A stretch of DNA of 64,000 bases from Ostreococcus lucimarinus (taxonomy: Eukaryota). Positions within the stretch are counted from its first letter, which is position 1; each line of letters starts with the position of its first letter. The position numbers were made by a program, and so were the translations under genes. The DNA is taken from the NCBI GenBank assembly GCA_000092065.1, contig CP000590.1; one strand, written 5' to 3'. A model generated the notes under the pieces. It had not been told where the DNA came from and did not search any database. It saw only the letters and a list, made by a program, of their open reading frames with translations. This document shows positions 13,490 through 57,190 of the stretch, in pieces.

Positions 13490-14764
13490 CTAAAACGGAA
13501 CAAACTTTCGCGCCACCGCAACAAAGATTCGGGGAATCAGAGGCTTTTCGTCGAACGTATCCTGCAAACGTCGACCAAAAATGCAGTTCGTGATATCATC
13601 GAGCAAGATATCTCGACCAAGGATCGGATCAGTGACGAAAGGGTCGGTGTGCGTCTTGTCCGGGTAGTAGCGCTCGTCCACCGCGATGCCAACATTTTTC
13701 AACGCGCGAGCAAACATCTTTGATTGCTCTGGCGGCGCCGACGTGTCCGCCTCACCGTGACAGAGCATGACGGGCGGTATGATTCTCACGTTTTGTCTCA
13801 CGTCGTACTCGCGTAAGATTGAAACCGGCGACGCGCGAGGAAGAGCCTCCGCAGCGCGTGCGCCTGAAAATCCAGCCTCCATGATTGACCAAAACACGTT
13901 CTTGTACAGGCCTTGACGATGGACGTGCTCGATGAGCGCCTCGTCGTCCGGGGCGTACACGCCGGATATTCCTATGAATTTCGAAATCGCTGCAGGCGAC
14001 CACGAGCACGGCCCGGCGACACCGCCGTCGCGTTGCGACCGCGACGTCCACTCCGTTTGTCGCAACAACGCCGTCGCCGAGATGTGCGCCCCCGCGGATT
14101 GTCCGACGATGACGACGCGTCTCTTATCCCCTCCCAGCGCCTCTAAGCGCTCGAGAACCCAGCCTATACCGTTTCCCACGTCTGCGATCATGTCTCCAAC
14201 CGTACCTTGTGGGAAGTTTCTATAATCTAAGGACGCCACAATCACCCCTCGTCGCGCCAAACGCTGCGCCAGGAGGGCGCCCCACGCCTTGTAACCGATA
14301 ATCCACATTCCACCCGTCACGAAGATCACCACCGGTTTCCGTTCATCTTCGCTCCAATCGTCGTCATCTTGCGTTTTATCTCTCTCGCTTCGCCCGATCG
14401 CGCGTTTCCTCCGTCGTCGTCCTCGCGCTCCGCCATCGTTCGGAAAGTATAAATCCAGCGCGTTTCTCCCCGCGGTTCCGTACGCGACGCCGCGTTCGAT
14501 GTTGGCGTCGGTCAAGTACGTCCACGCGACGCGCACGAAGGCGGGTGACAACACCGCGGCGTACACGATCAATCCCATGAGCTTGAACACCCACGCGATG
14601 GTTGAATATCTCGACAGCCGTATCGTCAGTCGCACGACGAGCGCCAACTGGCGACAAGTTTGCCGCGGTCGACGCGCGATGACGACGAAGAAGACGGCCA
14701 AGGCGAACACGCGCGCGGTGCCGAACGTGGACGTCGACGTCGACGCGGACGCGTTCGTCACCAT
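13490..14764 (-). CDS. ICME: Alpha/beta-hydrolase, isoprenylcysteine alpha-carbonyl methylesterase (ICME)-like, with N-terminal transmembrane segments, about 424 aa
   Basis: The track ORF begins with GTG at 14875. The first ATG is at 14764 (MVTNASAS..). VVIFVTGGMWIIGYKAWGALLAQRLARRGVIVASLDYRNFPQGTVGDMIADVGNGIGWV...RVVIVGQSAGAHISATALL closely resembles plant ICME (GGAWIIGYKAWG..DYRNFPQGT..GQSAGAHI). Confidence 0.75.
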   Translation of the reverse strand: MVTNASASTSTSTFGTARVFALAVFFVVIARRPRQTCRQLALVVRLTIRLSRYSTIAWVFKLMGLIVYAAVLSPAFVRVAWTYLTDANIERGVAYGTAGRNALDLYFPNDGGARGRRRRKRAIGRSERDKTQDDDDWSEDERKPVVIFVTGGMWIIGYKAWGALLAQRLARRGVIVASLDYRNFPQGTVGDMIADVGNGIGWVLERLEALGGDKRRVVIVGQSAGAHISATALLRQTEWTSRSQRDGGVAGPCSWSPAAISKFIGISGVYAPDDEALIEHVHRQGLYKNVFWSIMEAGFSGARAAEALPRASPVSILREYDVRQNVRIIPPVMLCHGEADTSAPPEQSKMFARALKNVGIAVDERYYPDKTHTDPFVTDPILGRDILLDDITNCIFGRRLQDTFDEKPLIPRIFVAVARKFVPF

Positions 14765-15007
14765 CGTGAATCGCTTCACGACCGACGACGGCACCGCGCA
14801 CGCGCGCGCGCGGACGCGTCTCGATGTGATGCGAAGGGTCGCGTTCCAACGCACCCCAATTGGCGCGGCAACCACCCGTCCGCTGACCGTCGTCCACGTC
14901 GTCGTCGTCAGTCCTCGGATCGAAGCGGTTCGTCGTGCATCGCGGCACCGCGAGACGCGCGTCGACGATTCGCTCGAAGATTACCATCGCGACGCGCGTC
15001 GTTCGCG

Positions 15008-15481
15008 ATGTGGACGGCGTACGCGCGCGTCGCGAGCGTCGTCGAGAATGCGCTCGGCATCAACTTTCACGCCTTTGTCGCGTGCGTGACGCTCGTCATC
15101 GCGCTCACGTACCCGAAACTCGCCAAAAGCGTGAGCGATCGTCTAGACAGTCGAGCGATGAACGATCGAGAGCGATTGGAGCGGTATCAAAGAAACCGAC
15201 AGCGCGCGTTGGAGAAGCGAGAGGAAGAGTTGAGACGCGCGGCGAGCGAAACCAAAGGAGGAAAGGCGGAATTGGACCGCGCGGCGGCGTTGGAGGCAAA
15301 ATTGGCCGAAATCGACGCCAAGGCTGCGCGATTGGGGTTGACGGCGAACGGTAAGGGCAGAAAACTGGGTGATAGTGGACCATCGAGGCCGGAGTGGAAT
15401 CCTTTAATGGGCGGCGGCGCTTCGCGAGGATATCGGCCCACTGGGCGACCGAGGCCGGGAGGTGGCGGATGAGGGCGGTAA
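15008..15481 (+). CDS. SELENOS: Selenoprotein S (SELENOS/VIMP) homologue with an in-frame UGA (Sec) at 15470-15472, followed by Gly-Arg and TAA at 15479-15481. About 157 aa including Sec.
   Basis: ATG at 15008 is verified. There is a single TM helix (HAFVACVTLVIALTYPKLAK), a coiled coil (ERLERYQRNRQRALEKREEELRR) and a Gly/Pro/Arg-rich tail WNPLMGGGASRGYRPTGRPRPGGGG-[TGA]-GR-[TAA]. Human SelS ends ..[27 protein letters not shown]. A penultimate or antepenultimate Sec in a GG_G context is the family hallmark. ATGA...AA...GA SECIS-like motifs occur in the 285-nt 3' region but were not folded. Confidence 0.75.
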
Positions 15482-15766
15482 GCCACGACGAGCGACGTCG
15501 TGGCGCCGTGAAACGATGAGGAGGAGGAGACTTAATTCCATGCGAGGTGACGTGACGCTGACGAGCGAAAGATTGAACTTAAATCAGCTCATTGGCCGAT
15601 TACGCTTCGCGAACCGCGACAGGTGTATGGTTTGTATACGATGTAAAACATGAACTTCGACGCCACCGTGCATTCCACGCGATATCTTGACTACTTGCTA
15701 CTTGCTATTCTCGCAATACGGCTATGCTACAACGATTGATGGAGAGAAGAAAAACCTGGGGACGCG

Positions 15767-17395
15767 TCACGTCAACTCTCGATCCGGCGACGCTATCGCC
15801 AAATGTTGAAGTACAGTCTCTGGCGTGCACGGATTCTCGACAAGAATCAGGTGGAAACATCCAACTCCACTATCCCACTCGTCATCCGAGATATCGATGA
15901 CGACGTCGCCGTCGACGATGCGCTCTCGACGACCGCCGACATAGGCGACGTAAAATTCAGGCCTCGGGATTTCGTTTGGACTCAAACCAAGCGTTGCTAT
16001 GCGATCGGCGATGGAGTTCATGGTACCCTCGAACATGGCTTCCCAATCGCGGACGAAGTGCGTGTTAAACGGATTCGCTTGCGTTCTCGGGCGAAGTATG
16101 TGCGTCAACGTGATTGCGGCGCCAAAGTCTATGAGTTCACCGAGCAGGTAGCGAACCCACGCGTCGTCTTCGAGGAAGAGTTCTGTCACGGATGAGGTAA
16201 TTTTCGCAGCGACGTACCAGAAGACCAGTCCTTGCATGCGCCTAAATATAAGCTCTTTTGCCTCCACGACGTGTGCATCTCCCGGATTTTGCGAGTGCGA
16301 GATCATCAAATGTTGCAGCCGCAGCGATTTAAGATTTCTAGTCGCGTTCGCCACCGTCGTGGCGAGCAATCCCGGGTATGCTAGATAAAACCCAATCAAA
16401 ACGAGCGATGAAAACATCGTTCGACACAAAATATTTACCCCAAACATTCCAAAGAAAAAGGTGTTCGTCACGAACACTTCCCATGACTCCATTCGACGCC
16501 GCGTGATGAGCCAACCGTAGGAGACGATTATCCAGGTGCAGAAAAACGTCGACTGATTCAAGGAGAGACAGCCTATGAACATGAGCGCCTCCGTGCCCCC
16601 GCCCGTGGGAGCGTCAAAATTCGATTTCGACAGCGGTAATCCTGCACCCGTGTTCTCGGCGTTTATCCAAAACCTGTTTGCCGCGATGAGCCACACCAGA
16701 CGCGTCACGACTGGCGCCAGCAGCAAGACGTGAAGCCACGTCAACGCGTCTCGTCTCTTCCAAAAGTACGCCCCTTTGACGGCGAACACGATGACCCAAA
16801 TGATGATAAATCCCGCAAACATCCGCGCCGCTGGTGCGTATTCAAACCCCACGTGCCCACTCTTCGGATTCAACTTCACGAACGTCCCCGAGAAATCCAC
16901 CTGCGCGTTGGCGTCGCACAGCACCACAATCGTGACTTCGCGAGACTTTTGCGTCTTCGTGATCCTCACCGTTTGTTGGTTCGACAGTAGCGCGGCTTGA
17001 CACCCACGCGTGGCCACGTAATCCGCCGCTATCATGGCCGCACACGTCTGAGAGCCCAGTCCTCCCGCGTCCAAGGGCGCTTGTAGCTCGCCCTTCGGAC
17101 ACGACACCGCCCACACCTTGGCGCTCGCGGGCGTGATTTCGTGCGCGGTGACGTCCAAGGTCCCACCTTTGGCGAACCCGAACGTCGAGATCTCCGCGCT
17201 CGCCGTCGCGGTCGCGGTCGAGTCTAATCGCACGCCGACGTTCGTGATCAACGCCTCGCACGTCCCGCTCGCGAGCGCCCAACACGCGAAGAAGATTGCC
17301 CCGGCGCGGGCCGTCGCGTTCGACGACGCGCTCGACGACGACGCGCGACGACGACGTCGACGTCGCTCGGAGACGACGACGCGAGCGGCGCGCAT
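15767..17395 (-). CDS. GPR107/GPR108/TMEM87-like (Lung-7TM-receptor / GOST family) protein: signal peptide, luminal domain, 7 TM helices, about 543 aa
   Basis: The first 191 codons of track ORF 15767..17968 are an R/S-rich antisense shadow. The start is taken at the ATG at 17393-17395 (MRAARVV..), which leads into a signal-like segment (AGAIFFACWALASG). A cysteine-containing luminal domain is followed by seven hydrophobic helices (FAGFIIIWVIVFAV..., LLLAPVVTRLVWLIA..., etc.). Confidence 0.6.
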   Translation of the reverse strand: MRAARVVVSERRRRRRRASSSSASSNATARAGAIFFACWALASGTCEALITNVGVRLDSTATATASAEISTFGFAKGGTLDVTAHEITPASAKVWAVSCPKGELQAPLDAGGLGSQTCAAMIAADYVATRGCQAALLSNQQTVRITKTQKSREVTIVVLCDANAQVDFSGTFVKLNPKSGHVGFEYAPAARMFAGFIIIWVIVFAVKGAYFWKRRDALTWLHVLLLAPVVTRLVWLIAANRFWINAENTGAGLPLSKSNFDAPTGGGTEALMFIGCLSLNQSTFFCTWIIVSYGWLITRRRMESWEVFVTNTFFFGMFGVNILCRTMFSSLVLIGFYLAYPGLLATTVANATRNLKSLRLQHLMISHSQNPGDAHVVEAKELIFRRMQGLVFWYVAAKITSSVTELFLEDDAWVRYLLGELIDFGAAITLTHILRPRTQANPFNTHFVRDWEAMFEGTMNSIADRIATLGLSPNEIPRPEFYVAYVGGRRERIVDGDVVIDISDDEWDSGVGCFHLILVENPCTPETVLQHLAIASPDRELT

Positions 17396-17609
17396 CGTCA
17401 CCGTCACCTGCGCGCGCGTCGCGCGTCGCGCGTCGTCCGTCGCGCGTCCGTCGCGACGCCCGCGTTCGCCAGTGACGCGCACCCGCGCGTGACGTCGCAG
17501 CGCGCCACGGCTCGAGCGCGCCACCGCAGACCGCGGCGACGGACACGACGACACGACTCGACGGATTCGCGCGCGCACTCCGACGCGCGCGAGGCCCGGG
17601 TCCCGCGAG

Positions 17610-18353
17610 ATGCGCCCAGAGACGTCGACGACGCGCGATAGATGGACCGTCGCCCTCGAAGACGCCCGCGCGTCGGCGAACGAGTGCGAAGACGCGCTGC
17701 GACGACGCGAGGCTGATGCCGAAGGCGACGACGATGGAGCGTGGTCGAAGCGCACGCTCGAGGCGCGAAGAAGCGTGAGCGGGTTGAAAACAAAACTACG
17801 CGCGTTAGAAGAGATGATCGCGCGCGATCGAACGGTGACGGCGACGACGAGCGAGGTTGAGAGAAGACAAGACGCGCTCAGAGAATTGCAGACGCGCGCG
17901 GAGGAGGCGGCGAGACTCGTGGCGAAAGGAAAGAAAAAGACGCAGCAGAAGAAAAACAACGACGACAATGACGACGGCGCTAGGCGTCGCGATCGCGCGT
18001 CTTCGTCGAATTACGACGAGGAGCGCGCGGTGCGTTCGCCGCAAGAAGTTTTACTGCTTCAACGAGAAATGCTCGACGAACAGGACGAGGCGTTGGACGA
18101 CTTATCCGTGGCGGCGGAGCGAACGAAAGACATCTCACTCGCGGTGAATGACGAGCTCGATCTCCACGCCAAGCTTTTAGACGGTTTAGAGGACGACGTC
18201 GAAGATACGCGCGGTCGTTTGCACTTGGCCTCGCGCGCGGTGAAGCGAATGATGCGACGAGGCTCCAACTGTCGGCAGTATTCCATCGTCGCTCTCGTCC
18301 TCGTCGTGTGCGTGCTCATGCTTTGCTTGATCATCAAATTGCAAGGGCCTTGA
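17610..18353 (+). CDS. Qc-SNARE (syntaxin-6/8 / SYP5-6-like): t-SNARE coiled-coil homology domain plus C-terminal TM anchor, 247 aa
   Basis: ATG at 17610 verified. The SNARE motif is EMLDEQDEALDDLSVAAERTKDISLAVNDELDLHAKLLDGLEDDVEDTRGRLHLASRAVKRMM. It is followed by the TM segment IVALVLVVCVLMLCLII and a short tail. Confidence 0.8.
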   Translation: MRPETSTTRDRWTVALEDARASANECEDALRRREADAEGDDDGAWSKRTLEARRSVSGLKTKLRALEEMIARDRTVTATTSEVERRQDALRELQTRAEEAARLVAKGKKKTQQKKNNDDNDDGARRRDRASSSNYDEERAVRSPQEVLLLQREMLDEQDEALDDLSVAAERTKDISLAVNDELDLHAKLLDGLEDDVEDTRGRLHLASRAVKRMMRRGSNCRQYSIVALVLVVCVLMLCLIIKLQGP

Positions 18354-27867: not shown

Positions 27868-28102
27868 GCGCCGATTTAATCACCTCGGAATTGATTTCAT
27901 ATTAACTTGTAACCAGCGACGACGCTCGAGACGCGCCACCAACCGCCTCACAACTCGGACGACCAAGCGCGCGAGCAGACGACGAACCGTTCGAGCTATC
28001 GAGCGGTGCGATCTGTTCGTCAACACGACCTCGCGTCTCGCCGTTCACGACGCACGAACAACGAGCGCGGAACCATAGAGGGAAGAGTCGTCTTAGGAGG
28101 CG

Positions 28103-29311
28103 ATGAATCAGCCTGATCGAGGCGGTTTAACGCGTCGAAATGTCGGTCATGGCGGTCAAGACGACGAGTATTCGACACCGAGTAAGCGTATGACGAATAT
28201 ACTCAAAGCGTTGGACGCGAATCCGAAATTAAAGGAGGATTACGTGAGCGAATCGACGTCTGGGGTGATCACTACTTTGGTGTGCGCGGCGTTGTGTTTG
28301 ATTTTGTTCTTTGGCGAATTCTTCTCGTACAAGACGACGAAAATCGTGAGCGAATTGAGAGTAAATCCGCTCGGTGTTCATCAAACGGTGCCCAACGCGG
28401 AAAGACTGAAGATTGACGTCGATATTACCTTTCACAGTCTGGCTTGCAATCTCATCACGCTCGACACCTCGGATAAAGCCGGAGAAGAGCACTACGACGT
28501 GCACGATGGTCACATCGAAAAGAGGAGGATAGACAAGCATGGGAAAGTGATTGATGCTGCGTTTACTTCAGAAAAGCCAAACAAACACAAGGAGATTGAG
28601 CAAGCGCTGCAAAAGATGAACGAGACCGACTCCGCACACGCCGCCGACTCTCATGCCATGGAGCACGTGCAGCCGTTCGGTGGTATGTTTGGTCTACAAA
28701 GTTTATTGCAAGAAGTGTTTCCAGAGGGCGTGGAGCATGCGTTTAGAAACGAGAATCAAGAAGGGTGCGAGGTGAAGGGTTACCTTGAAGTGAATCGGGT
28801 ACCGGGACGGTTTTCCATTTCGCCGGGACGTTCGCTCATGATGGGGATGCAAATGGTCAAGCTAAACGTGCAGACGGCATTAAATTTAACGCATACGATT
28901 CACAGGCTGTCATTTGGGGAAAGCTTTCCCGGTTTGGTGAGTCCACTCGACGGAACGCACCGCTCACTTCCGCCGAACGCGGTGCAGCAATATTTTCTTA
29001 ACGTTGTGTCGACGACATTCGAGCCTTTGGGAGAGAACAAAATCATCAGCACTCATCAGTATAGCGTTACTGAAACTTTCACAAGCTCACAGCGATCAAT
29101 TATGGGGACGTCCAACGGCCGTGATCCGGGCGTCATCTTTACTTACGAAATATCGCCGATTCGCGTCGACTTCAAAGAGACTCGCACGTCGTTTGGTGCA
29201 TTCGTCCTGGGTATCTGTTCCGTCATCGGAGGCGTCGTCACTATGGCGGGTATCACGCAAAATGCCGTTGAGTATATTATTTCTAATCGCAAGACCCTCT
29301 TCGCGTCATAG
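28103..29311 (+). CDS. ERGIC3: ER-Golgi intermediate compartment protein ERGIC/ERV41-46 family (ERGIC_N plus COPII-coated ERV domain), 402 aa
   Basis: ATG at 28103. It has N- and C-terminal TM segments flanking a luminal domain: LKALDANPKLKEDYVSESTSGVITTLVCAALCLILFFGEFFSY ... GAFVLGICSVIGGVVTMAG. The gene lies in the lower-GC island. Confidence 0.75.
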   Translation: MNQPDRGGLTRRNVGHGGQDDEYSTPSKRMTNILKALDANPKLKEDYVSESTSGVITTLVCAALCLILFFGEFFSYKTTKIVSELRVNPLGVHQTVPNAERLKIDVDITFHSLACNLITLDTSDKAGEEHYDVHDGHIEKRRIDKHGKVIDAAFTSEKPNKHKEIEQALQKMNETDSAHAADSHAMEHVQPFGGMFGLQSLLQEVFPEGVEHAFRNENQEGCEVKGYLEVNRVPGRFSISPGRSLMMGMQMVKLNVQTALNLTHTIHRLSFGESFPGLVSPLDGTHRSLPPNAVQQYFLNVVSTTFEPLGENKIISTHQYSVTETFTSSQRSIMGTSNGRDPGVIFTYEISPIRVDFKETRTSFGAFVLGICSVIGGVVTMAGITQNAVEYIISNRKTLFAS

Positions 29312-29469
29312 ACATTAGCAGTTGTAGCGTCCTAGTGTACATCGAGTCACATCAAACCATGAGTTACGTCCTGTAGTCCTCGCGCTCTTCCTCACACTTC
29401 GCCGCAACTACAGATGACCAAAATAAGTATTAGCAATCTTGAATACCTCGTGCGCGCCTTCCTCGGGTG

Positions 29470-32400
29470 ATGACGCGCGTGGTGGCCGTCGGTGCAATTC
29501 TCTTCTCCGTGACCCTGCTCTGTTCTCTCGTCGCGAGCGTGGGTGTATGTTCCAACGACCTCACAGGTGCATCCCTTCTCAATGCTTTGAGCGATATGAG
29601 GATAGGTACAGATACCGACATGAGTTTTGTATTCTTTGCCGCACTCGTAGACGTCGGTCTGCAGTCGTATTGCGGGAATACGCTGCGAAATTTGGGTAGT
29701 GCGTCTGCTCAGACTCTCATTCTCGTTCCCGACAGTGCCTTTGAGAGGGCGTCGATAGTCATGGATAAAGGATTAGAAGAAATAACAAGTGACAGAGTCC
29801 TCGTCTGTGAAATTTTGGAGTCATCCATCGTGCAAGCAGCATTGAACAGCCGCGATGTTCGAGACGGAGACGAGCTCTCTACCGCGTCAATGCGTATGCC
29901 CAAGCTTCGCGTAGACGTCGTTCAAGACATAAACGTTCGCAAATTACGAATTTTCACTGATGTTGGAACAACTATCGCTGATTTATTCGCGACAGATGTC
30001 GCTCTGTGTCCTCGCTTGAGTGCCGTGTTCGCCTCAGAGCTCTTGATACCATTAGTCGAGTCAAACGCTTTTCCCAGTGTGTGGAAGATATCAAAATCAT
30101 TACCAGAGCTTAGCACGAGTGCTGAAGCATTTCGAATCACTGATTCGTTGCGCGTGATATTCGAATCGAGCGAATACGATGGCTACGATGGGACTGTGGG
30201 GAGGTCAAGTTTGCAGACATGTGTCTTTGATGGAACAAATCATGGATTTCGCGCTTATTTCTTACCATCGAATCGCGCCTGGAGACGGTTCTTTCGCAAA
30301 ACTGAGCTCACAAAATCTGCTCTTTTCTCAGATTACTCCCTTCTTCTCAGTATCCTGCTTTACACTGAAGGACAGCTAACGTCGACACAGCAAAGTATTG
30401 ACTTGAAGTCGTACTTGTCGACGAGCCTCGTCCCAGGACAATTGCTACGCCCCGTCGGGGCGTCTACAATTTTGAGTGCCTTTCCAGGACAAGTGGAGAT
30501 TCCAGCTTTGCGAGTGGACGTGGACATATCTAAGGTCAGTTCGCGATACGTTAGAATTTCTGGTGGGAGCACGAGCAGTCGCTTTGATAACACCGCCGTC
30601 GTCGTCGCCGCAGATATTGTTTCATGCACTGGCATCGTCCATATCATCGATGATGTGCTAGTTCCACCAATGTTGACAGCATTTCGTCAGCTCTCATTGC
30701 GTAGCGAGCTGTCTATGTTTACAGATCTGTTACGAGCGCCCGCAATGCATGAGTTGATGCTCGAACTCGATACACCATCCGAAACGAATATATTTGCTGA
30801 CAGCGTCGTTTTCGCGCCAACAAATGTAGCGATTCGACTAACTTTGAATTACATCGGTTGGACGTTCGAAGATTTGTTCCAGAGGGACGCACTGTTGCGA
30901 CAATTTGTCACGTACCACGTCATAAGTACTCGAAGCGCCGAAGGAGCCCCTGAAAGACTCAAATTTCGTCTAGGACTCGGTCCCGAGGAACAGCAGTTTG
31001 CCACGCGCTTGGCATATCCAATCTTAGCGAAGAGCTACGCTAACACGTTCCAAGGCACGCCCATCGCTAAGACAGTGAAAGTACTCTCAACTCGCCGCGG
31101 CGTGAAAAAGTTCTTCACACCCCGCCATGTGCTTCGAGGACGTTTAAACTCTGCACGGTTCATCAAAAGTGACATTCCATCGACGAATGGCGGTATCGCT
31201 ATTATCGATGCGGCGCTCATTCCACCGACGGCGGAATTCGGAGTGACTCTTTACGATAGAATTCTTCGCACACCGACGCTGCGTGTTTTTCGTGAACTTA
31301 CAAGCGTTCTCGGCCTCCAGCGCGAGTTTGACACGCAAGGTTTTGGAAACGGTGACTGTACCGTATTTGCACCGACGGATTCCGCATGGGTTACCTTACT
31401 TGCCGATCTCATGACGACGCAGGAGGAAATCGCAAACCGCGCCACAGCGATGCTGTACGATATTATCATGCTCATGCTCGCCCCTAGAACGGAAGAATTT
31501 CAAGAGATTGAACGCGAACTTTATGACCCATGGCTGTCAAAGGACGCACTGGATGGTGACGAGCTCGTGACCGCGCTCTCGGGGTATACGACGGTGAGAG
31601 TACTTTGATTTAATTATTTCTCGTTTAATTATTTTTCCAAATTTTCCAGCATGCAAACATTATCCATTTCGGCGCATTTGAGAGATGCGTTGGTCAGAGC
31701 TGCACTCCTACGAGCACACTAGTAGCCGTACCTCGAGTTGTGGGTCCAGTGCTGGCGCAATCGTCGTTTACAAGGTAAATATATCGTATTCATCAGTGCA
31801 TCAATTTAATTAATTTCATCAGTACGACCTCATGGAAAAACTATGCAAGAATTATTTCGCCGGTACGCCGATTTTGTGCACGAGATCGCGCTATGAGCTC
31901 TGACAACTCAAGTAGGACATGGCAAGCGGACAACACGCCCTGAACGGCGAGCTTTACGTGGTAAAATAATTAGTTTTGGTCTGAGAAATATTTAATTAAT
32001 TTTCAATGTTCGTCCTGATTTCACAGATAGATACGGTGCTTCTACCGCGCCTTGGCGAGCGTTGCCGCACGGCAGACTTTACATACAACGCGGGCAGCGC
32101 ATTTGAGCTGCGAGATGGGCGCGTTCGACGATATGAGCGTTGTTTAGCACCGCCGTGTTCCTACACTTTACCAGGTGGGAATTATTTTCTCGAATTAATT
32201 TTTAAAACATTTCATTTGCTCCTACACGCGCGCTTTTTGCTGACCTTTGATTTTTCTACCGATCAAACAGGACTTTACGGTCGCGCTGGTGTGCGTATTT
32301 CTGTAGAAGCTTTCGTGACGTACGACGCGTTACCAATTTGCGACTCGTGGTGCGTATTAATTTCTTGGTGGTGGTGTGTTCCGTGCACCGGAGTAGTAGC

Positions 32401-33169
32401 TCAAACTATAGCCACGATCGGTGGATGTGCGCCCTATCAATCTCAGTGCGGTGGTTCCCTCGTTGTTTTCGTCACGGACGCGGGTGAAGTGCGATTTGGC
32501 GTGCAAACGTTCATGGACTCCTACAATAATTTACCGCTCAGTTTGGGCGGTGGTTTGCGCATCGTCGACGTCTCGGTGCCAGGCAAGGGTTTTTTTGCGC
32601 GCGACGGGATCGCGTTCAAAGTGCTCTGCACGTACGATGGCGTTTCGAATACGACAAAGATTTACATCAATGATAAGTTAAGGGGTATAGCAGATCCGTT
32701 CGTCATGGGTCAGTTTTTGTTTCGCCCGTTCCACAACGTATCCGGGAACTTGCACGAGAAGATCACGATTGGCAACAGCATGCACTCGGCTGCTTCCGCC
32801 ACGAACACTTTAACTGACTTTCAAGGTATGCACGAGACGAGTAATGGAACTCCAGATACACGAGATGGCACATTACCGGCAATTGGTCAATTTGCGACCT
32901 ATGACGCCTCGCCGCTCTTCGACGGCTCCCCAACAACGCAATATTTCTTGCCGTGGAGGGGCACGATTCACGAGGTGTACGTGTATTTTGACAACGGACT
33001 ATATCAAGGGATTAGATATCCTTCAACTTGCGTGCACTTAGAGCCCGTCGAACCCGAAGCCGATGATTTTAGTGATTTTGTGACTCGTCGCCGCCGTCTC
33101 CACGAGACGCCGGTTTCCAGAGTGCGCGTTGGCCCTCGGCGGCGTAGTGACATTCGGGCTACTAGCTAG
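29470..33169 (+). CDS. Secreted multi-FAS1 (fasciclin) domain protein with a C-terminal Cys/Trp-rich domain. Proposed 5-exon model, about 1100 aa: join(29470..31593, 31685..31774, 31916..31960, 32027..32174, 32271..33169).
   Basis: The first ATG at 29470 follows the GTG at 29467. There is a signal peptide (VAVGAILFSVTLLCSLVASVG). Three FAS1 domains are complete, with H1/H2 boxes (VVFAPTNVAI, TVFAPTDSAW, GIVHIIDDVLVPP, NGGIAIIDAALIPP). The fourth FAS1 domain is cut by the apparent stop at 31606. Its missing H2 box (ALNGELYVIDTVLLP) opens the next track ORF, 32006..33169. Phase-0 GT..AG introns are proposed at 31594-31684, 31775-31915, 31961-32026 and 32175-32270, all AT-rich and 66-141 nt. They restore ..SGYTT|MRWSELHSYEHTSSRTSSCGSSAGAIVVYK|DMASGQHALNGELYV|IDTVLLP.., which aligns with the pattern of domains 2 and 3 (..GGSTSSRFDNTAVVVAADIVSCTGIVHIID). 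The alternative is two separate genes, 29470..31608 and 31919..33169. Confidence 0.5.
31594..32270 (+). other. Cluster of four short AT-rich spliceosomal introns: 31594..31684, 31775..31915, 31961..32026 and 32175..32270
   Basis: Direct reading: GTGAGA...AG, GTAAAT...AG, GTAAAA...CACAG and GTGGGA...AACAG boundaries. The intron bodies are much more AT-rich than the flanking exons. All are phase 0 in the proposed model, except that the last begins after codon position 1 of GGT (phase 1) and is 96 nt long. In-frame stops inside them (31606 TGA, 31913 TAG) are removed by splicing. Confidence 0.5.
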
Positions 33170-33187
33170 AGGTCGAAACTACACAAA

Positions 33188-36100
33188 CTATAAGACTAAT
33201 GATTTGAGAATGTTTGCCGCGAAAGTCGCTTCCCTACTTTCCTTCCTGTCACCATCAAAGCAACACTCAGGCACGATGGCAGAAACAGGGGGAAGACTGA
33301 CTCGCTGCGATCCAGCCTCGGGCGCGACACTCCAGACTGGAGTGGGAATGTCAACCAAAAGACAGCCACGAGCCGCGGTTGCCATCGAGTATAGCCAAAC
33401 TTCATCACCGTTGACTTTTGCGAAAGCACGCGTTGCGTTCGCTGCGACGAGTCGCAAAGCCTCGTCGTCCTCCATGGCAAGCTTGGCCACGACGGGCACT
33501 GCCGCCCCGAGCAAATCGTGTAGCGCTTGCTTTGATTTTTCGCACGATGCGATGGATTCTAAAGTATCGCATATTTTGATACGGATGCGTCTCGTAAGCT
33601 CTGATGAAATCTCCGACTCAGCGATGAAGCTTGCATCGACGGTATCTGCCAGCGTAAGAAGTTCGAGCGATCGGTGTCGTTTGTCAACGTGACAAACACC
33701 TTGTTGCAAAACGCGCGACAGTATAGGCCATAGATCCGAGTTCATGCGTTTGGCGATGAAATCGCCACCACTTGTCGAAGCCATGGTTCGAAGTAACGAC
33801 AAACTCGCTTCGTACGCTTCAGCTTGAATCGAAATTTGAAATCGGTCGCTGAGCGATGATACCGCATGAGGCCAGATGTTATGGATGTGTGGCAGTACAC
33901 GGGCATCTTTGTAGAGGGAAGCCACATCAAAAGGCGTGGAATTCCTGCCTCCGTAAGCTTTGAGTACTTTTAAGACGTATTTATCATGCGTCAATGCAGA
34001 TTCTGCTGCTGAAAGGCTCTCAAGAGCGAACGAGCAAGCCGTTGCAGATAAACTTCGAACGCCGGCGTAAGGCGACTCCAGCAGCGCGCTGACCGATCTC
34101 AGCAAGTCTATCGCACAACCGACCATGGCCTGAAGGCGACGAACGCGCTCCAAGGACTGAGCCCGGGTGGTTTCAATGTCCTGCGAAAGCACCGAACGCA
34201 TTTCTTCGACAAAGACCTCCGTCAGCTCGTTCTCGTCTTCGCTGTCTGGCTCCTCCGGGTGATACTTTTGTATGCTAGCCACAACACCTCGCGAGTGTGT
34301 CTCTATCTCTCGCACCTCGAGCAACACTGCTGAACAATATTCATTCATTACGAGCAGAAAATCTTCGGAGTGCTCCGCATTTTTTTCTCTATTGACGATC
34401 AAAAATGTGCGCAACGCCAATCGAATCGGCTCTGCGAGAAGCTTCACCATGCTCTTTGCCGCATCAGTCCTCCTCAGAATAGCCGCAAAGAGTCGAGGAG
34501 CGCGTGAGTGCTTATCTAAATGCCGCATTTGTCGAGAAAGCATATCCACAACGTAGTCTGCGTTCGCAACGACAAGACTCGCTATTGGTGAATCATCGGT
34601 TGAATTGTATTCTCCGCTTTGAGCCAACTTGAGCAAAACAAGCGCTGCGGTGTCTCGCACCTCAAGCGATTCTTCACCGAGCTTATCGAGTAATGGACAA
34701 AGTACGTTTGTCAAAAATGCACTTGTTCGTATGTGATCTTTGCCGAGTCCTTCTCCGATGATCCCCATGCCTTCCATCAACACGCGTAGTAAAAGAGCGT
34801 TGTCCGGTTCCGCAGCGTCAAGATTCCACACCTCGCTGCATACGTACTCTTCGACGATCAAACTGGAGACGCGAACAAGATATTCTCTTTCGACTGCTGA
34901 TTCAGTGATGGCGCCAAAAAGCATTTCATTGAGCGCTATCAGGTGGGCTGCCGCGTTTCTTTGCCATGCACCCGCGGTGCCCAATGCGTCGAGCTCTGCA
35001 TCATTTCTCAATGTGCCGAGAAAGTATTGCGCCATTGGCACAAAATACGTTTCCAGTGAAGATTCGTTTGTGATTGATGCCGCTCGACCGAGTAATCTTA
35101 GCATTTTTGCAAAACTTTTGTACATGGATGCGTCGGGGAAGTACTGCAACCTAGGAGGCGCCCGTGGCAACCCTTGCGCCGTCGACACGCTGGCTTCGGT
35201 CAAATCAATTAAACTTATCATCTGCGCGCTGCCATCTCGTCGTTGAGAAGAAAATGTTTCGATGAGCAGACACTCCGCAATGGTAGAGCACAAATGTTCT
35301 CTCGAGCTCGGACGGGCGAATAGCGTTTCTTTCAAGCGCCGAGCGCCGGCGAATTCCAGAGCGATGAGCAAGCGCTGAAGATGCCCGACAGCCTTATCGG
35401 AAGAATCACGCAGCGTGTCTGCTATGTTGGACAAATCGTCTTTTATGATTGCCTCCAAGTCTGCTCGGACGACGTAGCCGAGGTTGTCAAGAGATCTCAA
35501 ATCTTCCAATATGGGCGTCGAGACTTGTGCCCAACTATCTCCCGCGAGCGTGAGTAAGCACTCCATCATTCTACGCCTCGTCTTCGCGCCCAGAACTTTT
35601 GCACAATGTTTTAAGACGCTACTCGCCATTTTTCCAGTCGCAAGTCTCACGGTCGCGCGCTGATGACTCGCTAAGGGTGGAATTGTCGCTAAGAGCGCCG
35701 CTTCAACGCGAGAGCTCGCGAGAGAGAGCCATTCTTTATCTCGAACCACCTTGAGATCTTTACCAGCGTTCGCAGGGGATACGGACGCGTTTTCGTCGTT
35801 CATATCCCTCGACATATTTTTTGCGTTCGATTCCAGCTGATCGTCTATCGATCGAGCGACGAGAGAACCCAGTGCGCTTTGCAACGCATTTGCACCTTCG
35901 CCCTCTGCGGAATCGCCGAGCTCTGATTCGTACAACGAGTCGTTCAGAACGCACGACAGAATGGACGCCATCGAACTCAGGGCAAACTCGACGCCATCTG
36001 CGCCAGTTCCTCCCGGCCCAGCGCCAACGTTTGGGCGAACACCACTCGCCGCGACTAACGCCTTGGTCAACCCAGACACCGTGCCCGGAAGGAAAAACGC

Positions 36101-42947: not shown

Positions 42948-45032
42948 TCATGAGTCGTGGCGCGATCGTGTCACGTCTCCTTGGGGGGGGCGAATTCTTT
43001 CATCGGCCCAGAAATCGACATATTCGTCAAACTTGGGGCAGCAGCGATGATGTCGAAACATTCCTGTTTCTTTTTCGAGTCGCTTGTAGACTTCGTTCAC
43101 TTCCTCCGCCGCGGGTTTCCAGTCCATGTACGCAAAGTTGACCGCAGCTTTCCAGCCGTCGCCCAAATTCACGCCCCAGTGAACGGATCCGTAGTCGGTG
43201 ACGACGTATTCGCCCGCTCTTTGAACGTGTCGATAAACATGGATCTTCTCTTCGCCATTCACGCGCTTTGAATTCCAATCCTGGATCCGCGCCGGATCGA
43301 GCCAAAGCCTGCGCATCTCGAGAATGTCAACCGTGTATTCCGCGCCGAGCGTTTCTTGCAAATACGTGTGCAGCAAGTACAGATCGGATCGAGGAATACT
43401 ATACCAAACGACCGCCGAATGCGAGTCCGGACGAGCCAAGATGACATTTGCCGAAGCGAACGCGTAGTCCTCGAAATGCAAGGGGAAAATAGACCCGACA
43501 CCCATGTAGTAAAGCCAAGGAGACACGATGCCGACGCCCCAGAGTCGAGTCTCGCTCGCCTTCTCCGTGGCCATCTCGGCGGCTTCTAAGACGGCGGCTT
43601 CTATCACAGTACCAGCGGAGCTGTGCTTTTTGCCCTTCTTCTTATCTTCTCGCCGTTCGATTCTCCGTTGAACGGCAGATTGGTCTACTTTCGTAACCAC
43701 TCCGCCCGTTCGCCCTTTCTCCTCCGCTCGGGCCTCCTCCGCCGACTGCGGCGTTGCGCAGTCCAGGGCGGCGTCGAGAGACAGCCTCTTATTCACCACG
43801 TTCTGGGTTTCACACAGCTCCAAACACCGTCGTAACACACTTGGCTTTCTCTGACCCAGTAATCGAGGATCCCAAGGATGGGTTTGGGGCGTTTCAGACG
43901 CGTCCACGGCTCGAACATTCTTCATGAGTGCCTCCATCGCGATGCCTTGAAGGTATGGAAACTGGAGTGGAAAACCAGAATGAATTTGCTGTAAGAACCA
44001 GCATTCACGAGCGTTGACGTCCATGAGTCTAAACTGATCGGCGTGCGTACGACATCGCTCTTGAAAATCTTCCACAAAGGCGCCGATTTCCATGTTGGAG
44101 TCCACGTCATTCATCGCTCGAAACGGCTCGAGCAGGCCCGTCTTTCTGTCCGGCAAGTTTTGTCTAATGTACTGATAGTCGGGTCCAAGGGTGCGGAGCT
44201 TGATGGATTTGGTGCCGACCCAAGACAAGTCACACAGCGCGCTCGTATCGTCTAAGATGTCCCACCCATCGCTAATCTTGATCACCATCGCCCCTTGCTT
44301 GCCGAACTCGCTCCACCACGCTTTGTCTTCGCCTTGCAACAGTTGCTCTGGCGTCACGCCTAGATTCATGCAACTGTACACCGTGGGCAGCGTCGACGTG
44401 TCGTTTTTCCGCATGCTTTTGTGCGTGCGCAGCTCGCACAGTTTGATCGATTCGGGCCCAGTTCGCGAGGGCTTGGACGTCACCGGGGGTGGCGTTCGTC
44501 CGCTCGTCGTCTCGTGTCGCAAGTGCACCGCCGTCTCCTCGCTCGAGTTCGCCCCTGAGCTCGAGTGGTGGTCGTGATCGCCGCTAACGATGGCATCCTC
44601 AAACGTCGCACCTTTACCGTCCCAAATCCCGCGCGCGCGCGCCGGCTCCTCGTACCTGTACGCCGGCTCTGGACTCAACTCGCCCGCCGCGAATTTCGCC
44701 GCGAATCTCGCCCTCTTCTCCTCAAAGTCTCGCTTCTCCTCCATCTCGTGCGGCTCCATCCGTTCGCGTTCACCGTTATCGCACACGTTCAACGCCCGAT
44801 GCGGTCGCTCGGCGTGATATCGCCGCATCGCTCGCTTCGCCGCGTCGTTCCCTCGCCGCCGCTTCCCGCGTCGGCGTTCGCCTTCGCGTTCGCGTCCCGC
44901 CGCCTCCTTCCCTCGCCGCGCCCCCTCGCCGCGCCTTCCCGTCGTCCGTCGACGCGCGTTCGCCTCCGCGCTTTCGCACCATCTCGTCGCCGATCCCGGG
45001 CCGTCGTCTTCGCGCGCGCGCTCCCACGCCAT
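42948..45032 (-). CDS. JmjC-domain protein with a C-terminal KDM4/KDM5-type JmjC domain (putative histone lysine demethylase), about 694 aa. The 5' end is uncertain.
   Basis: The JmjC core is ..PWLYYMGVGSIFPLHFEDYAFASANVILARPDSHSAVVWYSIPR...YRHVQRAGEYVVTDYGSVHWGVNLGDGWKAAVNFA (H-x-E ... H Fe-ligand pattern). The start is set at the ATG at 45030-45032 (MAWERARE..). The upstream 1 kb of the track ORF is R-rich low complexity and overlaps exon 1 of the opposite-strand RING gene. Confidence 0.55.
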   Translation of the reverse strand: MAWERAREDDGPGSATRWCESAEANARRRTTGRRGEGARRGKEAAGREREGERRRGKRRRGNDAAKRAMRRYHAERPHRALNVCDNGERERMEPHEMEEKRDFEEKRARFAAKFAAGELSPEPAYRYEEPARARGIWDGKGATFEDAIVSGDHDHHSSSGANSSEETAVHLRHETTSGRTPPPVTSKPSRTGPESIKLCELRTHKSMRKNDTSTLPTVYSCMNLGVTPEQLLQGEDKAWWSEFGKQGAMVIKISDGWDILDDTSALCDLSWVGTKSIKLRTLGPDYQYIRQNLPDRKTGLLEPFRAMNDVDSNMEIGAFVEDFQERCRTHADQFRLMDVNARECWFLQQIHSGFPLQFPYLQGIAMEALMKNVRAVDASETPQTHPWDPRLLGQRKPSVLRRCLELCETQNVVNKRLSLDAALDCATPQSAEEARAEEKGRTGGVVTKVDQSAVQRRIERREDKKKGKKHSSAGTVIEAAVLEAAEMATEKASETRLWGVGIVSPWLYYMGVGSIFPLHFEDYAFASANVILARPDSHSAVVWYSIPRSDLYLLHTYLQETLGAEYTVDILEMRRLWLDPARIQDWNSKRVNGEEKIHVYRHVQRAGEYVVTDYGSVHWGVNLGDGWKAAVNFAYMDWKPAAEEVNEVYKRLEKETGMFRHHRCCPKFDEYVDFWADERIRPPQGDVTRSRHDS

Positions 45033-45370
45033 GTCGAGATTCGCGTCTCCGACGACCGACGCTCGTCGACGACGCGCGCGCGGATCGCGGCGCGTCGACG
45101 CGCGTCGACGCGGCGCGCGAAGCGCCGAGAACGTCGACGAGCGTTCGCGTCGGAGCGCGTCGGACGCCGCGCTCTGACGCGCGCTGACGCGCGCTGACGC
45201 CGACGAATGACGATTCGTCGACGCCGAGACGCGACCGCGACGACGGACGCGCGCCGAGACGAACGCGCGCGTCGCGGGCGACGACGCGATTCGGGGCGTC
45301 GGCGTGCGTCGGCGTGCGTGGGTTCTCTCATGGCGTTCACGACGCGTTGAATGCGGAAACGTGACGGGTA

Positions 45371-45382
45371 TAATTAGGGTTG
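45371..45382. promoter_or_regulatory. Telo-box-like motif, aTTAGGGTTg (8/9 match to TTAGGGTTT), next to a TATAAT-like element in the JmjC / RING-PB1 divergent promoter
   Basis: Direct reading: gggtataattagggttgcgacgg. Confidence 0.35.
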
Positions 45383-45689
45383 CGACGGCATCACCGGACG
45401 GGACGCCAGGCTTTCTTCCCGACGCGACCGGCGCGACCGGCGCTCCGGCGCGTCGGCACTCGTCGACGCGATGGGCGGACGCGTGCGACGATCGAACGAT
45501 CGCGCGCGCGCGAACGACGCGACGCGCGCGGACGAAGAGATGGGCGACGCGGACGCCGCGCGGGCGAACGCGAACGCGAACGCGAACGACGCGACGACGG
45601 CGCCGCGCGGTGAAGGTGCGGGGAAAAATCGCGCGATTCGTTCGATTGATTGTCGCGTCGCGTCGACGCGTCGTGCGTTGGCGAGTTCG

Positions 45690-46739
45690 ATGAGACTGAC
45701 GAGGGCGCGCGCGCGCGGACGCACAGACGATCAGTGCTGGATTTGCCTGGACGGGGACACCGCGGACAGAGAGGTGCGCGCGCGACGACGCGCGACGACG
45801 CGCGCGACTCGATCGCCAAGATAGGCTTTTCCCATACAAATGTGACTTTTTGGGCGAAAATATCTTTCGCGCGAGATCCCGCGTTTTTGGTGGCGTGTGT
45901 GTAAACAAACGGTCGGACCGGGACCGGGACCGGTTCGCGTCGGACGCGTCCGGAGCGCCCGGAGCGCGACACGGGGGGTGGGCCGGAGCGATGAGACTGA
46001 CCGATGATCGCGCGTTCGCCTCGCGCAGTTGTATCATCCGTGCGCGTGTCCGCGATGGGCGCACGCCAAGTGCGTGGCGCGATGGCAGTTGCAGTGCTCG
46101 GGGAAGCCGGAGGAGGTGACGTGCAAATTTTGCGCGTCCAGACTGCCGGATTGGCGAGCGACGCTGTTCAAAGACGTAGTGCGCGCGAGTGACGACGCTG
46201 TGGTGCCGACGTCGACGAGTGGATCGAAGAAGAGAAACAGTATGGATGAACGTTTACTACGCAGTTCCGCGGACGGAGACGACCAAGAAGCGGGGACGCC
46301 CGGCGACGAAGAGACGGACCACAAAGACGGACCGGGAGAAATCAAGGGCGATATCATCGTCAAGTTTAATAATATCTCGTTCCGATGCCAAGTTCGCACC
46401 GGGCCGGATGGATTGGCGGATTTCATGCGGCAAATCAGAGAACGTTGCGGGATACCGGAGGAGAAGATGAAATCGCTCAACCTCACGTATCGGTGCAAGG
46501 ATCCGAACAACGGGATGCCGATGACGTTGGAAGGGCTGAACGAGAGCGCTTTCGATGCCGCGGTTTTATGCTCGGCGGTTCAAGATAAGATCAAGCATCA
46601 AGCTCGCGTCGATTCGGCGGTAAAGTCTTCTCGAACTACCGAAATTACGTCTAGATCCAATAGAAGGCGTTCCGGTGACCGCAACTCCTTCGAGGAAGGT
46701 CGCCGTGAACAAGTCTCAGCGTTTCGACGATTCGAATGA
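45690..46739 (+). CDS. C4HC3 zinc-finger (RING-CH/PHD-like) plus PB1-domain protein. Two exons: join(45690..45773, 46029..46739), about 265 aa.
   Basis: Exon 1 (MRLTRARARGRTDDQCWICLDGDTADRE) supplies the first Cys pair. Exon 2 (track ORF 46029.., which starts at TTG) supplies LYHPCACPRWAHAKCVARWQLQCSGKPEEVTCKFC, completing a C-x2-C-x13-C-x-C-x4-H-x2-C-x16-C-x2-C finger. The GC-rich intron 45774-46028 runs GTGCGC...CGCAG, is 255 nt long (a multiple of 3) and is phase 0. The C-terminal region GDIIVKFNNISFRCQVRTGPDGLADFMRQIRERCGIPE..LNLTYRCKDPNNGMPMTLEGLNESAFDAAV is PB1-like. Two TGTAA motifs lie in the 3' region. Confidence 0.6.
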
Positions 46740-46944
46740 GGACCCGTAAGGAGCTTTCGTTGTCAACATCGTTCAAGACGAGTGGAATTTTTGTACACGA
46801 CGCAGCGATACGAGCTGTTTTTTTGTATTAAGCGCAAACTTTTGTACCGCGTATGTGCGGCGGTCGTTCTGTAATAAACGATCGTGTAACATTATGAATA
46901 AAATACTACAACCATGCACGCAAAAAACACGCTCAATCAAATTC

Positions 46945-48040
46945 CTAAAACATTTCCGCCACCATGCTCGCCGCGTCGTTTTGCCCTTGGAATCCGCTGA
47001 GCTCGGCGAGCTTTTCGAGCGTCTGTTCGCCTTCTAGTTTCTTCCCATTGATCACCCACGTCGGGAACCCCTCCACTTTCGCCGCATCACACGCCGTAGC
47101 CACGGGCGTGCCTCGTTCCCACCCATCTGGGAAGCACTCCACGTACGGAATCTGCGCCCCAGCGCCGAACGTCTCCTTTTGTTCGATGCAGTGCGAGCAC
47201 CAAAACGCGCCGTACATCTTCGCTCCGGTCTCTGCGAGATGTTTCGCGAGTGCGCGAGAGTATGCCGTAGACGTTTGCTCCAACTGCGCGGGCGCGTAGG
47301 CTAGTTTCAACCCTTGAGTGTTTTTCGCGTCCGGGCTCTCCGTGAGCACGATGCTCATCGTCAAAACCGTGACGACGTACAACGCGATGGCCGGCGGGAA
47401 CGCGTTGGCGCTCTCTCTCGAACTCAGACCCGCGAAACCGACGCCAAAAAGCGTGAGCGACAGAGCGGCGGACGTCAAGCAGTACAAGCACTCCACACCA
47501 CCGAGCTTGAAGGCTAAAACAAAAAGTAAATACGACGACACGCCGGCTAATCCCGTGGCGCCGAAGAAGAGTAACACGCGCGCCTTGCCGTAGGATGACT
47601 CCAAATCCTTATCGCGTCCGTCGTCGCCTTGCTTCACGAGCTCGTCTTGCATACCCGCCCCCCACCACGCCAGCGCGGCGACCAAACCGTACGCCACCGC
47701 CCCGAACGCGGACAGCGGAATCCCAAACAACTCGGCGTATCCGCTATTCAACGCCGTCTGACACCCGCCCACGGGACACGCCACTTCCCCCCCCGTGAGC
47801 TTTTGCACCGCCAAATACGTCGATTCTAACGCCCCGAATCCCGCTAACCCGGCCATCACGCGCAGAGGCGGACGCGGGAGCGGTCCGGGCGGCAGACTCG
47901 GAGCCGGTTTCGGCTTCGCCTTCGTCTCCGTCGCCGGCTCATCCGTCAGCGCCGGCGCGCTCGCGGGTTCACCGTTCTCCGCCTCGACGACGACCCGCGC
48001 GCGTCGTTCGCGCGCGTCGCGCGCGTCCCATCGTCTCGTT

Positions 48041-48081
<41 letters not shown>

Positions 48082-48144
48082 TCGTCGCGTCCATCGTCCT
48101 CGACGCACCGACGCGCGCGCACCGATCGTCCCCGTCGCCAACAT
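46945..48144 (-). CDS. LTO1: VKOR (vitamin-K-epoxide-reductase-like) membrane domain fused to a thioredoxin-like domain; LTO1-type thylakoid thiol oxidoreductase with a transit peptide, 399 aa
   Basis: ATG verified (cat at 48142-48144). The VKOR core has loop cysteines (..GEVACPVGGCQ..) and a membrane CxxC (GVECLYCL). The C-terminal Trx-like domain carries WCSHC (YGAFWCSHCIEQKETFG). The transit peptide contains a poly-Thr run encoded by (GTC)n at 48044-48081. Confidence 0.8.
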
Positions 48145-48446
48145 CGCGCGCCGCCGTTCGCGTCCGCGCTCGCGTCGCGCGCGTCGAGCCCTCGACCGCG
48201 CCGCGCGCCGGCGTCACCGTCCTCGCGCGCGCGCGTCCGCGTCGTCGCCGCTCGCGCGCGCGTCGGATTTTGCGGATAACGCGTCGTCGATTCGTCGATT
48301 CGTCGATTCGCTCGACGCGGCACTCGCGCGCGCCGCGTCGCGCGCGACTCGCGTCGATGCGCGGCGCGGCTCGCGCGCGCGCGCGCGCGAGCCCCGCGCG
48401 CGCGTCGCCTCGCGCGCGTCGCGCGAGGGCGTCGACGACGCGCGCG

Positions 48447-49361: not shown

Positions 49362-49508
49362 TCAATCTCTCAAATCACTCATTCGCGCATCTTTCCGCGT
49401 ATTTAACGCCGGGTCTGGGTCGACGCGCCGGTGACGCCGTGGATTCGATCTCGAACCCGCCGTGCATTAATGTCCGCACTAGTGCGCGCGTCGCCGCGAA
49501 GACGCCCG

Positions 49509-50471: not shown

Positions 50472-50904
50472 GCGCGCGCCGCGCCGCGCGCCGCGTAGAA
50501 CGTACGTTTGTGCGATAATAAAACTAGCTCGTAGGTCGACGGGCGGCGCCGCCCGGTTTCTTTCTTCTCGCGCTTTTCTCGGTTCACGACTCGTCCCGAC
50601 CCCCCTCGACGACGGCCGGTCCTTCGAGCAGGCCGCGACGTCACCGCGGGGCATCGCGTCGCCATTCCGAGTCGCGCGCGTCGTCGACGACGCGTGTGCG
50701 CGCGCTCGCTCGCTCGAGGTGCGCTCGAGGTGCGCGCGCGCATCGCTCGCCGCGTCCCGAGCGCGTCGTCGTCGCGCGCGCGCGTCGCGACGCCGCGACG
50801 CGCGCGCCGCGTCGCACCGCCGCCTTTCGCGACTGGATAAAGCGACGACGACCGAAGGATCGACTGACGAACGACCGGGACTCGCAGGCGGACGACGGAC
50901 GAAG

Positions 50905-56819: not shown

Positions 56820-57190
56820 CGCGCGCGAAACACCCGCGCTTTCGTCGACGCTCGCGCGTCCGTCGCGCGCTCGTCGCGACGCGCGCCGAACCGAACGCGC
56901 GCGTCGTTCGATCGGTCGTCGTTCGCGCCAACGCTGTCACGATCGGCGTCGCGTCGTCGCGCGCGCGCTGCGGTGCGGTGCGGTGTCGCTCGCGACGACG
57001 CGCGCGCGCGACGATCGTCGTTCGTCGCGCGCGCTCGCGTGCGGCTCGGGCGTTCGACGCCGCGCGGCGCGAGGGCCAAGATGTGCCGAGGCGCCGGGGC
57101 GGTCGCCGCGCGCGCGTGTTTGAAATGGAGCGCGGGTCGGAGGTCGCGAGCGGTGTTGCGTGCTTACAAGCGAGCGGAAGCGTGATTAGT

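Follow-up and report, generated by a model that had tools for sequence, protein, structure and literature searches.

Does the TGA codon at positions 15470-15472 of this 64,000-nucleotide stretch of Ostreococcus lucimarinus DNA (contig CP000590.1; the whole stretch is referred to as the window) end a protein with a glycine-rich tail, or is it read as selenocysteine (Sec) in selenoprotein S (SelS, SELENOS)? The first-pass annotation, made from the DNA letters, had favoured the second reading on the grounds that the open reading frame (ORF) closes with TGA and continues with GGG CGG TAA, and both its coordinates and its C-terminal peptide proved exact. Translation from the ATG at 15008 gives a protein that starts MWTAYARV and ends ...RPRPGGGG-TGA-GGG-CGG-TAA, with the TAA at 15479-15481. 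As argued below, the apparent TGA stop almost certainly encodes selenocysteine, and we hold with high confidence that the locus is a selenoprotein S gene with a UGA-Sec codon and a GUGA-type SECIS (selenocysteine insertion sequence) element (Table 1).

Up to the TGA, all 154 residues are identical to those of ABO98168.1 / XP_001419875.1, which is labelled ‘predicted protein’ and comes from Ostreococcus lucimarinus CCE9901. The GenBank model XP_001419875.1 is truncated at these 154 aa, and UniRef100_A4S389, which has the same sequence, carries the name ‘Selenoprotein S’. A rival account of the locus is that TGA 15470-15472 is an ordinary stop, that the protein ends ...PGGGG and that the stem-loops downstream are unrelated structures of the 3′ untranslated region (3′UTR). 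Both the GenBank gene model and all of the automatic gene calls in metagenomes do end there, and TGA is the commonest stop of long ORFs in the window, terminating 29 of the 60 that reach at least 150 aa. A second in-frame stop follows no more than two codons on in 2 of these 29. Since TGA plus a nearby second stop in one sequence is thus not beyond chance, the weight of the argument rests on the comparison of orthologues. A truncated, Sec-less form of human SelS is also known (PMC3628699), which makes some termination alongside recoding plausible.

A protein search returned 26 homologues, all of which, as called, terminate in ...PGGGG. Their contigs were retrieved together with 36 further metagenomic loci, and 47 orthologous loci, metagenomic and genomic and representing at least six distinct Mamiellales lineages, were compared. 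The codon next to GGGG is TGA in 47/47, and in every case a TAA or TAG comes after it at a distance of one or two sense codons, which encode G, R, GR, AR or RR. An ordinary stop is difficult to reconcile with the observation that the TGA is invariant while the Gly codons ahead of it drift between GGA, GGC, GGT and GGG. At the positions of the post-Sec codons of the window gene, the orthologues carry GGG/GGA/GGC, GCG/GCC and CGG/AGG. All five of the within-clade changes between the two stops (GGG to GGA, GGG to GGC, GCG/GCC, and CGG to AGG twice independently) are synonymous, an outcome with a chance of about 0.007 under neutral single-base change by a rough reckoning. The comparison of orthologue C-termini had been proposed beforehand as a check on recoding, and no orthologue with a conserved non-TGA stop after GGGG was found among the 47 loci.

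The same position is occupied by cysteine in more distant relatives. SelS homologues of the Cys type, recovered by the profile search described below, end ...GGGCG, and their Cys aligns with the UGA position. Eight of ten SelS proteins that score above the cut-off of the Pfam family PF06936 end ...GGCG, ...KKCG or ...GSCG, mostly GGGCG. Cys thus stands where the algal genes have TGA, which is the classical Sec/Cys pairing. An invariant TGA, a second stop held one or two codons further on with only synonymous changes in between, Cys at the homologous position and, as described next, a covarying SECIS element at a conserved distance together render an ordinary stop very improbable, and Sec at the UGA remains the reading that we pursue.

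The first-pass annotation had predicted a SECIS element in the 285-nt 3′ region that reaches to the convergent neighbour (15482-15766), and had named a foldable element there as a test of recoding. Such an element is present and conserved, at 15542-15610. In sequence and fold it is built as a type II SECIS element: two helices flank a GUGA core that faces CGA and is predicted to form the kink-turn quartet, and 12 nt separate the core from an unpaired AAA, which precedes a mini-stem. The core lies about 80 nt from the UGA in the window and 82-115 nt from it in the orthologue lineages, on the same strand; the minimum spacing between UGA and SECIS is about 50-110 nt. The element also fits the published description of Ostreococcus, in which the SECIS elements of O. 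lucimarinus, with a single exception, have a G ahead of the UGA core and a long mini-stem is characteristic (PMC2375036).

Covariation supports this fold. Because MAFFT misaligned the two most distant lineages when given all 13 SECIS sequences, the test was limited to the ten Ostreococcus-type sequences, and the others were folded separately. With these ten distinct sequences RNAalifold recovered both helices, with compensatory changes in 8/17 pairs. When the structure was specified as 22 pairs, 88.8% of cells were paired, compared with 27-50% when the partners were slid by 1-3 columns; in seven pairs both partners had changed (columns 23/62, for instance, went from C-G to U-A, and columns 28/57 from G-C to A-U), and the covariation score was reached by none of 500 shuffles. 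Five lineages folded one by one gave an identical topology. Differences between lineages were nevertheless seen in the details. The Ostreococcus clades have the GUGA core, and the most divergent element of the GUGA type is that of locus L002. The element of L016, approximately 110-156 nt after its TGA, has a canonical AUGA core, in a gene that ends U-G-stop as in human. L005 (2029-2095) and L010 (2059-2125) have lost the mini-stem, so that the AA lies in a simple apical loop, as in type I elements.

A covariance model was built from the ten Ostreococcus-type sequences. In the 64-kb window its only strong match was the SECIS element itself, at a score (86.5 bits) that is circular, the next best reached 13.2 bits, and no second SECIS was found in the window with this model. 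In the L002 clade the model picked the expected site weakly (14 bits, E 0.027), and it misses the AUGA-type element of L016. The best non-self match, at 15738-15786 on the minus strand (13.2 bits, E 0.17), contains GACGUGAC; it is without helix II and was judged to be a chance match. This match overlaps the TGA that ends the convergent ORF of 542/733 aa.

The two candidate cores of the ATGA type that the first-pass annotation had proposed were not borne out. The first range, about 15519-15560, covers only the 5′ half of the element, since the latter spans 15542-15610, and the true core is the GUGA at 15552-15555. The second, about 15722-15766, was checked and showed no conserved helix context; the ATGA at 15516-19 was rejected as a core for the same lack of a conserved helix context.

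The assignment to the SelS family, made initially on architecture and the C-terminal alignment, is supported by hydropathy, structure prediction and profile comparison. The Kyte-Doolittle maximum over 19 residues is 2.13, at residues 15-33. AlphaFold2, run with a 37-sequence alignment, places a short N-terminal helix ahead of one unbroken helix at residues 19-108 (pLDDT > 90), followed by an unstructured tail at residues 109-154 (pLDDT 54-69). The last 47 residues include 14 Gly, 6 Pro and 7 Arg. The protein is thus predicted to have the layout of SelS, with an N-terminal transmembrane helix, a long helical region and a disordered Gly-rich tail.

An algal profile was built from 15 orthologues and searched against 1.84 billion representative proteins, giving 49 matches. 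In an alignment of 37 members (the window protein and 36 profile matches), 26 matched PF06936 at E <= 0.01, the best with an E of 3e-41, and ten of the proteins found with the profile, each tested singly, were all above the PF06936 gathering score. Comparison by hhalign of the algal profile with an alignment of ten PF06936-passing proteins gave a probability of 98.8% and an E of 5.6e-17. The helical region as well as the tail is covered by this match, and both sides share the motif (D/E)(Y/W)NPLMG...GYRP..R...GGG. A profile search of the sequences in the PDB gave no meaningful match (best E 0.36, to an arabinofuranosidase).

We also considered whether the protein might be of the SelK (SELENOK) type. 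SelK, which represents the sister family, is a small single-pass membrane selenoprotein of about 90-100 aa with a Gly-rich tail ending G-U-G-R; the terminal G-U-G-R of the algal protein equals the end of human SelK, and both families have one membrane helix and a tail rich in Gly. The length of 157 aa, the 90-residue helix and the NPLMG...GYRP motif of the algal protein are however of the SelS type, no SelK Pfam family was matched at E <= 10 by the window protein or 14 orthologues, and the algal profile retrieves SelS (PF06936) proteins. Moreover, separate SelK and SelS genes are listed for O. lucimarinus (PMC2375036). We therefore give practically no credence to SelK and retain SelS as the family of this protein.

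A second structure lies between the UGA and the SECIS element. This hairpin starts 3 nt past the UGA, and both the CGG codon and the TAA form part of its 5′ strand. Folding of the 62 nt from the UGA onward gave -23.5 kcal/mol and a z-score of -4.4, and none of 200 shuffles was as stable. A hairpin was found at the same position in all eight lineages folded (the window, L001, L002, L005, L006, L009, L010 and L016), formed by unrelated sequences; the z-scores of the other seven were -4.1, -0.9, -2.9, -5.1, -4.2, -1.8 and -3.1. As controls, the 62 nt from the stops of 25 other long ORFs of the window gave a mean z of +0.22 and a minimum of -2.56, with 0/25 at z <= -3. Within clades, changes checked by hand preserve the pairing (in L009 A-U has become G-U, in L004 U-G has become C-G, and in L030 A-U has become G-C). 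Together with the G-U pairs, the wobble-preserving changes suggest that the folded species is the plus-strand RNA.

In certain genes, both viral and cellular, a hairpin just 3′ of the stop codon promotes ordinary read-through. The strong hairpin directly 3′ of the UGA would therefore also suit a mechanism in which a near-cognate or suppressor tRNA inserts Trp, Cys or Arg at the UGA, stimulated by the hairpin and without selenocysteine. Read-through of this kind leaves unexplained a conserved element of the kink-turn type, with (G/A)UGA opposite GA, an unpaired AA and canonical spacing. In addition, the homologous position is Sec in animal SelS, and 29 selenoprotein genes are documented in O. 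lucimarinus (PMC2375036). Non-Sec read-through is in our judgement extremely improbable. With Sec as the residue inserted at the UGA, the hairpin would, by analogy with mammalian SelS, probably modulate recoding or set the spacing.

Several observations weigh against recoding or against the assignment to SelS. Direct hmmscan of the window protein alone against PF06936 gave 9.3-9.6 bits, below the cut-off of 29.8, in a weak match that covers the C-terminal half of the model; it was for this reason that the profile route was used. The single-sequence fold z-scores of the SECIS elements are modest, ranging from -0.6 to -2.8. No Rfam SECIS model was matched at E <= 10, either in 14500-16500 or in 15473-15766 alone, and the Rfam searches at this threshold returned only chance microRNA and small-RNA matches. 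The Rfam miss may be explained by the G-type core and long mini-stem of the Ostreococcus SECIS. The conservation of CGG/AGG could stem partly from the overlapping hairpin rather than from the protein.

Further points of this kind concern features described for human SelS. No Cys is present in the last 60 residues of any of 15 Mamiellales orthologues, so that the tail is without a resolving Cys; the sole Cys of the window protein, C26, is in the predicted membrane helix. Protein P0091, which ends ...AAGGG, is likewise without a tail Cys and passes the PF06936 cut-off, indicating that the resolving Cys is not universal in the SelS family. The VCP/p97-interacting motif (VIM) is defined as R-x5-AA-x2-R and lies in the cytosolic helix. 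Neither the window protein nor 9 of the 14 other orthologues contain a VIM-like R.{5}AA.{2}[RK], and the five that match the pattern do so at a non-homologous position. On the evidence of the sequences, then, the Cys partner of Sec and the VIM do not appear evident in algal SelS. Finally, the published 75Se labelling used O. tauri, and the labelled bands were not attributed to SelS (PMC2375036).

Comparison with human SELENOS (SelS, VIMP) shows both likeness and divergence. In common are the single N-terminal membrane helix, the long helix, the disordered Gly-rich tail, the motif NPL-G...(W/Y)RP..R...GG-U-G and a Sec near the C-terminus. The human tail to which the first-pass annotation had aligned the algal one matches both the Sec peptide in PMC6844570 and the supplementary alignment of PMC2375036. 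Vertebrate SELENOS mRNAs, like that of the alga, have a type II SECIS with AA in a bulge and a stem-loop from about 3 nt past the coding region. The algal protein is shorter (157 aa, compared with 189 in human), its Sec is antepenultimate (U-G-R) instead of penultimate (U-G), its SECIS core is GUGA instead of AUGA, and no VIM-like motif is seen at the position homologous to the human VIM. The distance from UGA to SECIS is about 80 nt in the alga, whereas the human SelS SECIS begins beyond nt 335 of the 3′UTR (PMC6844570).

The redox chemistry may also differ. A selenenylsulfide between Cys174 and Sec188 has been proposed for human SelS, and the algal tail is without an equivalent of Cys174; an intramolecular selenenylsulfide within one chain is consequently impossible. 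One possibility is that Sec acts with an intermolecular partner, or that a diselenide forms between the two chains of a dimer. The Cys-containing SelS homologues (C-x-GGG-C-G) have the same architecture and C-terminal motif as the algal protein, but they use Cys, need no SECIS and carry a second Cys 4-6 residues upstream that is absent from the algal form.

The hairpin resembles the proximal stem-loop (SL1/PSL) of mammalian SelS and the Sec redefinition element (SRE) of SelN, which are likewise stable hairpins a few nt 3′ of a UGA-Sec codon in which structure is kept and sequence is not. It differs from SL1/PSL in that the 5′ strand in the alga overlaps the end of the coding sequence, namely its last sense codon plus the stop. 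The mammalian SelS proximal stem-loop stimulated Sec insertion in vitro (PMC3628699), whereas in cells it was dispensable or spacer-like (PMC6844570). The stem-loop set of PMC3628699 comprises 32 mammalian and 4 non-mammalian sequences, Ciona and Xenopus being named in the text, and algae are not mentioned in PMC6844570.

The codon layout, the conserved TGA and second stop, the SECIS element with its structure and covariation, and the family membership were all observed; from them we infer the following course of events. The mRNA would encode a 157-residue SelS in which an N-terminal membrane helix runs into a long cytosolic helix and then into a disordered tail rich in Gly, Pro and Arg. The UGA at 15470-15472 would be recoded to Sec under the direction of the type II SECIS about 80 nt downstream, which, by analogy with other eukaryotes, would recruit SBP2, eEFSec and Sec-tRNA(Sec). 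After Sec, Gly and Arg would be added and translation would terminate at the TAA at 15479-15481. The membrane topology would be that of the predicted helix, and the role of the protein, again by analogy, may be in endoplasmic reticulum quality control and/or as a reductase.

A TGTAA, which we take to be the green-algal poly(A) signal, lies downstream of the SECIS element. In all lineages whose sequence extends far enough it occurs 30-107 nt beyond the SECIS 3′ core, the background being 0.42 per kb, and across these lineages it is never found between the UGA and the SECIS. The TGTAA at 15642-15646 is probably the poly(A) signal of the SelS transcript, which would leave approximately 100 nt between the signals of the two convergent transcripts. 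The stop codon TGA of the convergent neighbour is the complement of 15767-15769. Its ORF has no Pfam match; the translation contains several hydrophobic stretches and may represent a membrane protein of unknown family. In related metagenomic contigs an alpha/beta-hydrolase gene is likewise located upstream of SelS. No tRNA-Sec gene was found in the 64-kb window. The G+C content along the window varies strongly, from 0.48-0.52 around 28-36 kb (28001-36000) to 0.65-0.70 around 44-52 kb (44001-52000).

Table 1. Positions of the SelS gene, its RNA elements and other features in the window
Feature	Position	Strand	Details and evidence
Full-length SelS (SELENOS) coding sequence	15008-15481	+	157 codons including Sec155, end ...GGGG-U-G-R-stop; translation, identity to XP_001419875.1 up to the TGA, published alignment
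Predicted transmembrane (single hydrophobic) helix codons	15050-15112	+	Roughly residues 15-35; Kyte-Doolittle maximum, start of AlphaFold2 helix
In-frame TGA, Sec155	15470-15472	+	TGA in 47/47 orthologous loci; Cys-type homologues end GGGCG
Gly (GGG) and Arg (CGG) codons after Sec, followed by true stop TAA	15473-15481	+	All observed changes within clades synonymous
UGA-proximal stem-loop	15475-15509	+	14 bp with AA bulge; starts 3 nt past the UGA, overlaps last sense codon and TAA
Type II SECIS element	15542-15610	+	Consensus fold, covariation, folds in five lineages, fit to published Ostreococcus description
SECIS helix I	15542-15549 with 15603-15610	+	
SECIS core GUGA	15552-15555	+	
SECIS opposing CGA	15597-15599	+	
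SECIS helix II	15557-15566 with 15587-15596	+	
SECIS unpaired AAA	15568-15570	+	12 nt after core
SECIS mini-stem	15571-15574 with 15582-15585	+	4 bp
TGTAA, putative poly(A) signal	15642-15646	+	Downstream of SECIS
Convergent neighbour ORF	15767-17968	-	733 aa from first start codon, 542 aa from internal ATG
alpha/beta-hydrolase gene, upstream neighbour	13490-14875	-	
tRNA-Ala(CGC)	56957-57036	+	Only tRNA gene of the window

The recoding of this UGA is correct but was already known, since this gene was printed with Sec in 2007. Lobanov et al. 2007 (Genome Biol 8:R198, PMC2375036) reported 29 selenoprotein genes in O. lucimarinus; SelS appears as a selenoprotein for both O. tauri and O. lucimarinus in their Table 2, and their Additional file 2 gives ‘O.lucimarinus 142 YRPTGRPRPGGGGUGR’, aligned with the human tail. 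That published alignment already shows the tail to be without a resolving Cys. The SECIS sequence itself was not found in the supplement text searched. A later survey places SELENOS among the algal selenoprotein families found almost only in the Sec form (PMC7539508). The GenBank model and all automatic metagenome gene calls that we retrieved still truncate SelS, but the gene itself was not overlooked, having been published with Sec and being named as such in UniRef.

The locus is thus a real recoding event that can be recognized from raw sequence, although biologically little is added given that the gene and its Sec were published in 2007. What our analysis adds to that account is the exact coordinates, the support from 47 loci, the differences in SECIS elements between lineages and the stop-proximal hairpin, of which the position-conserved hairpin may be the only part that is new. 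For specialists, two features are of interest: an algal SelS without the cysteine for the selenenylsulfide proposed in the human enzyme, and a position-conserved hairpin in picoalgal SelS mRNAs as in those of mammals, where its function is disputed. We tentatively suggest, while regarding it as somewhat doubtful, that the hairpin at 15475-15509 belongs functionally to the signal for SelS recoding and is the counterpart of the mammalian PSL, and that Sec without a resolving Cys follows another chemistry. If this is true, a UGA-proximal structure would be an ancient or repeatedly selected feature of SelS, from green algae to mammals.

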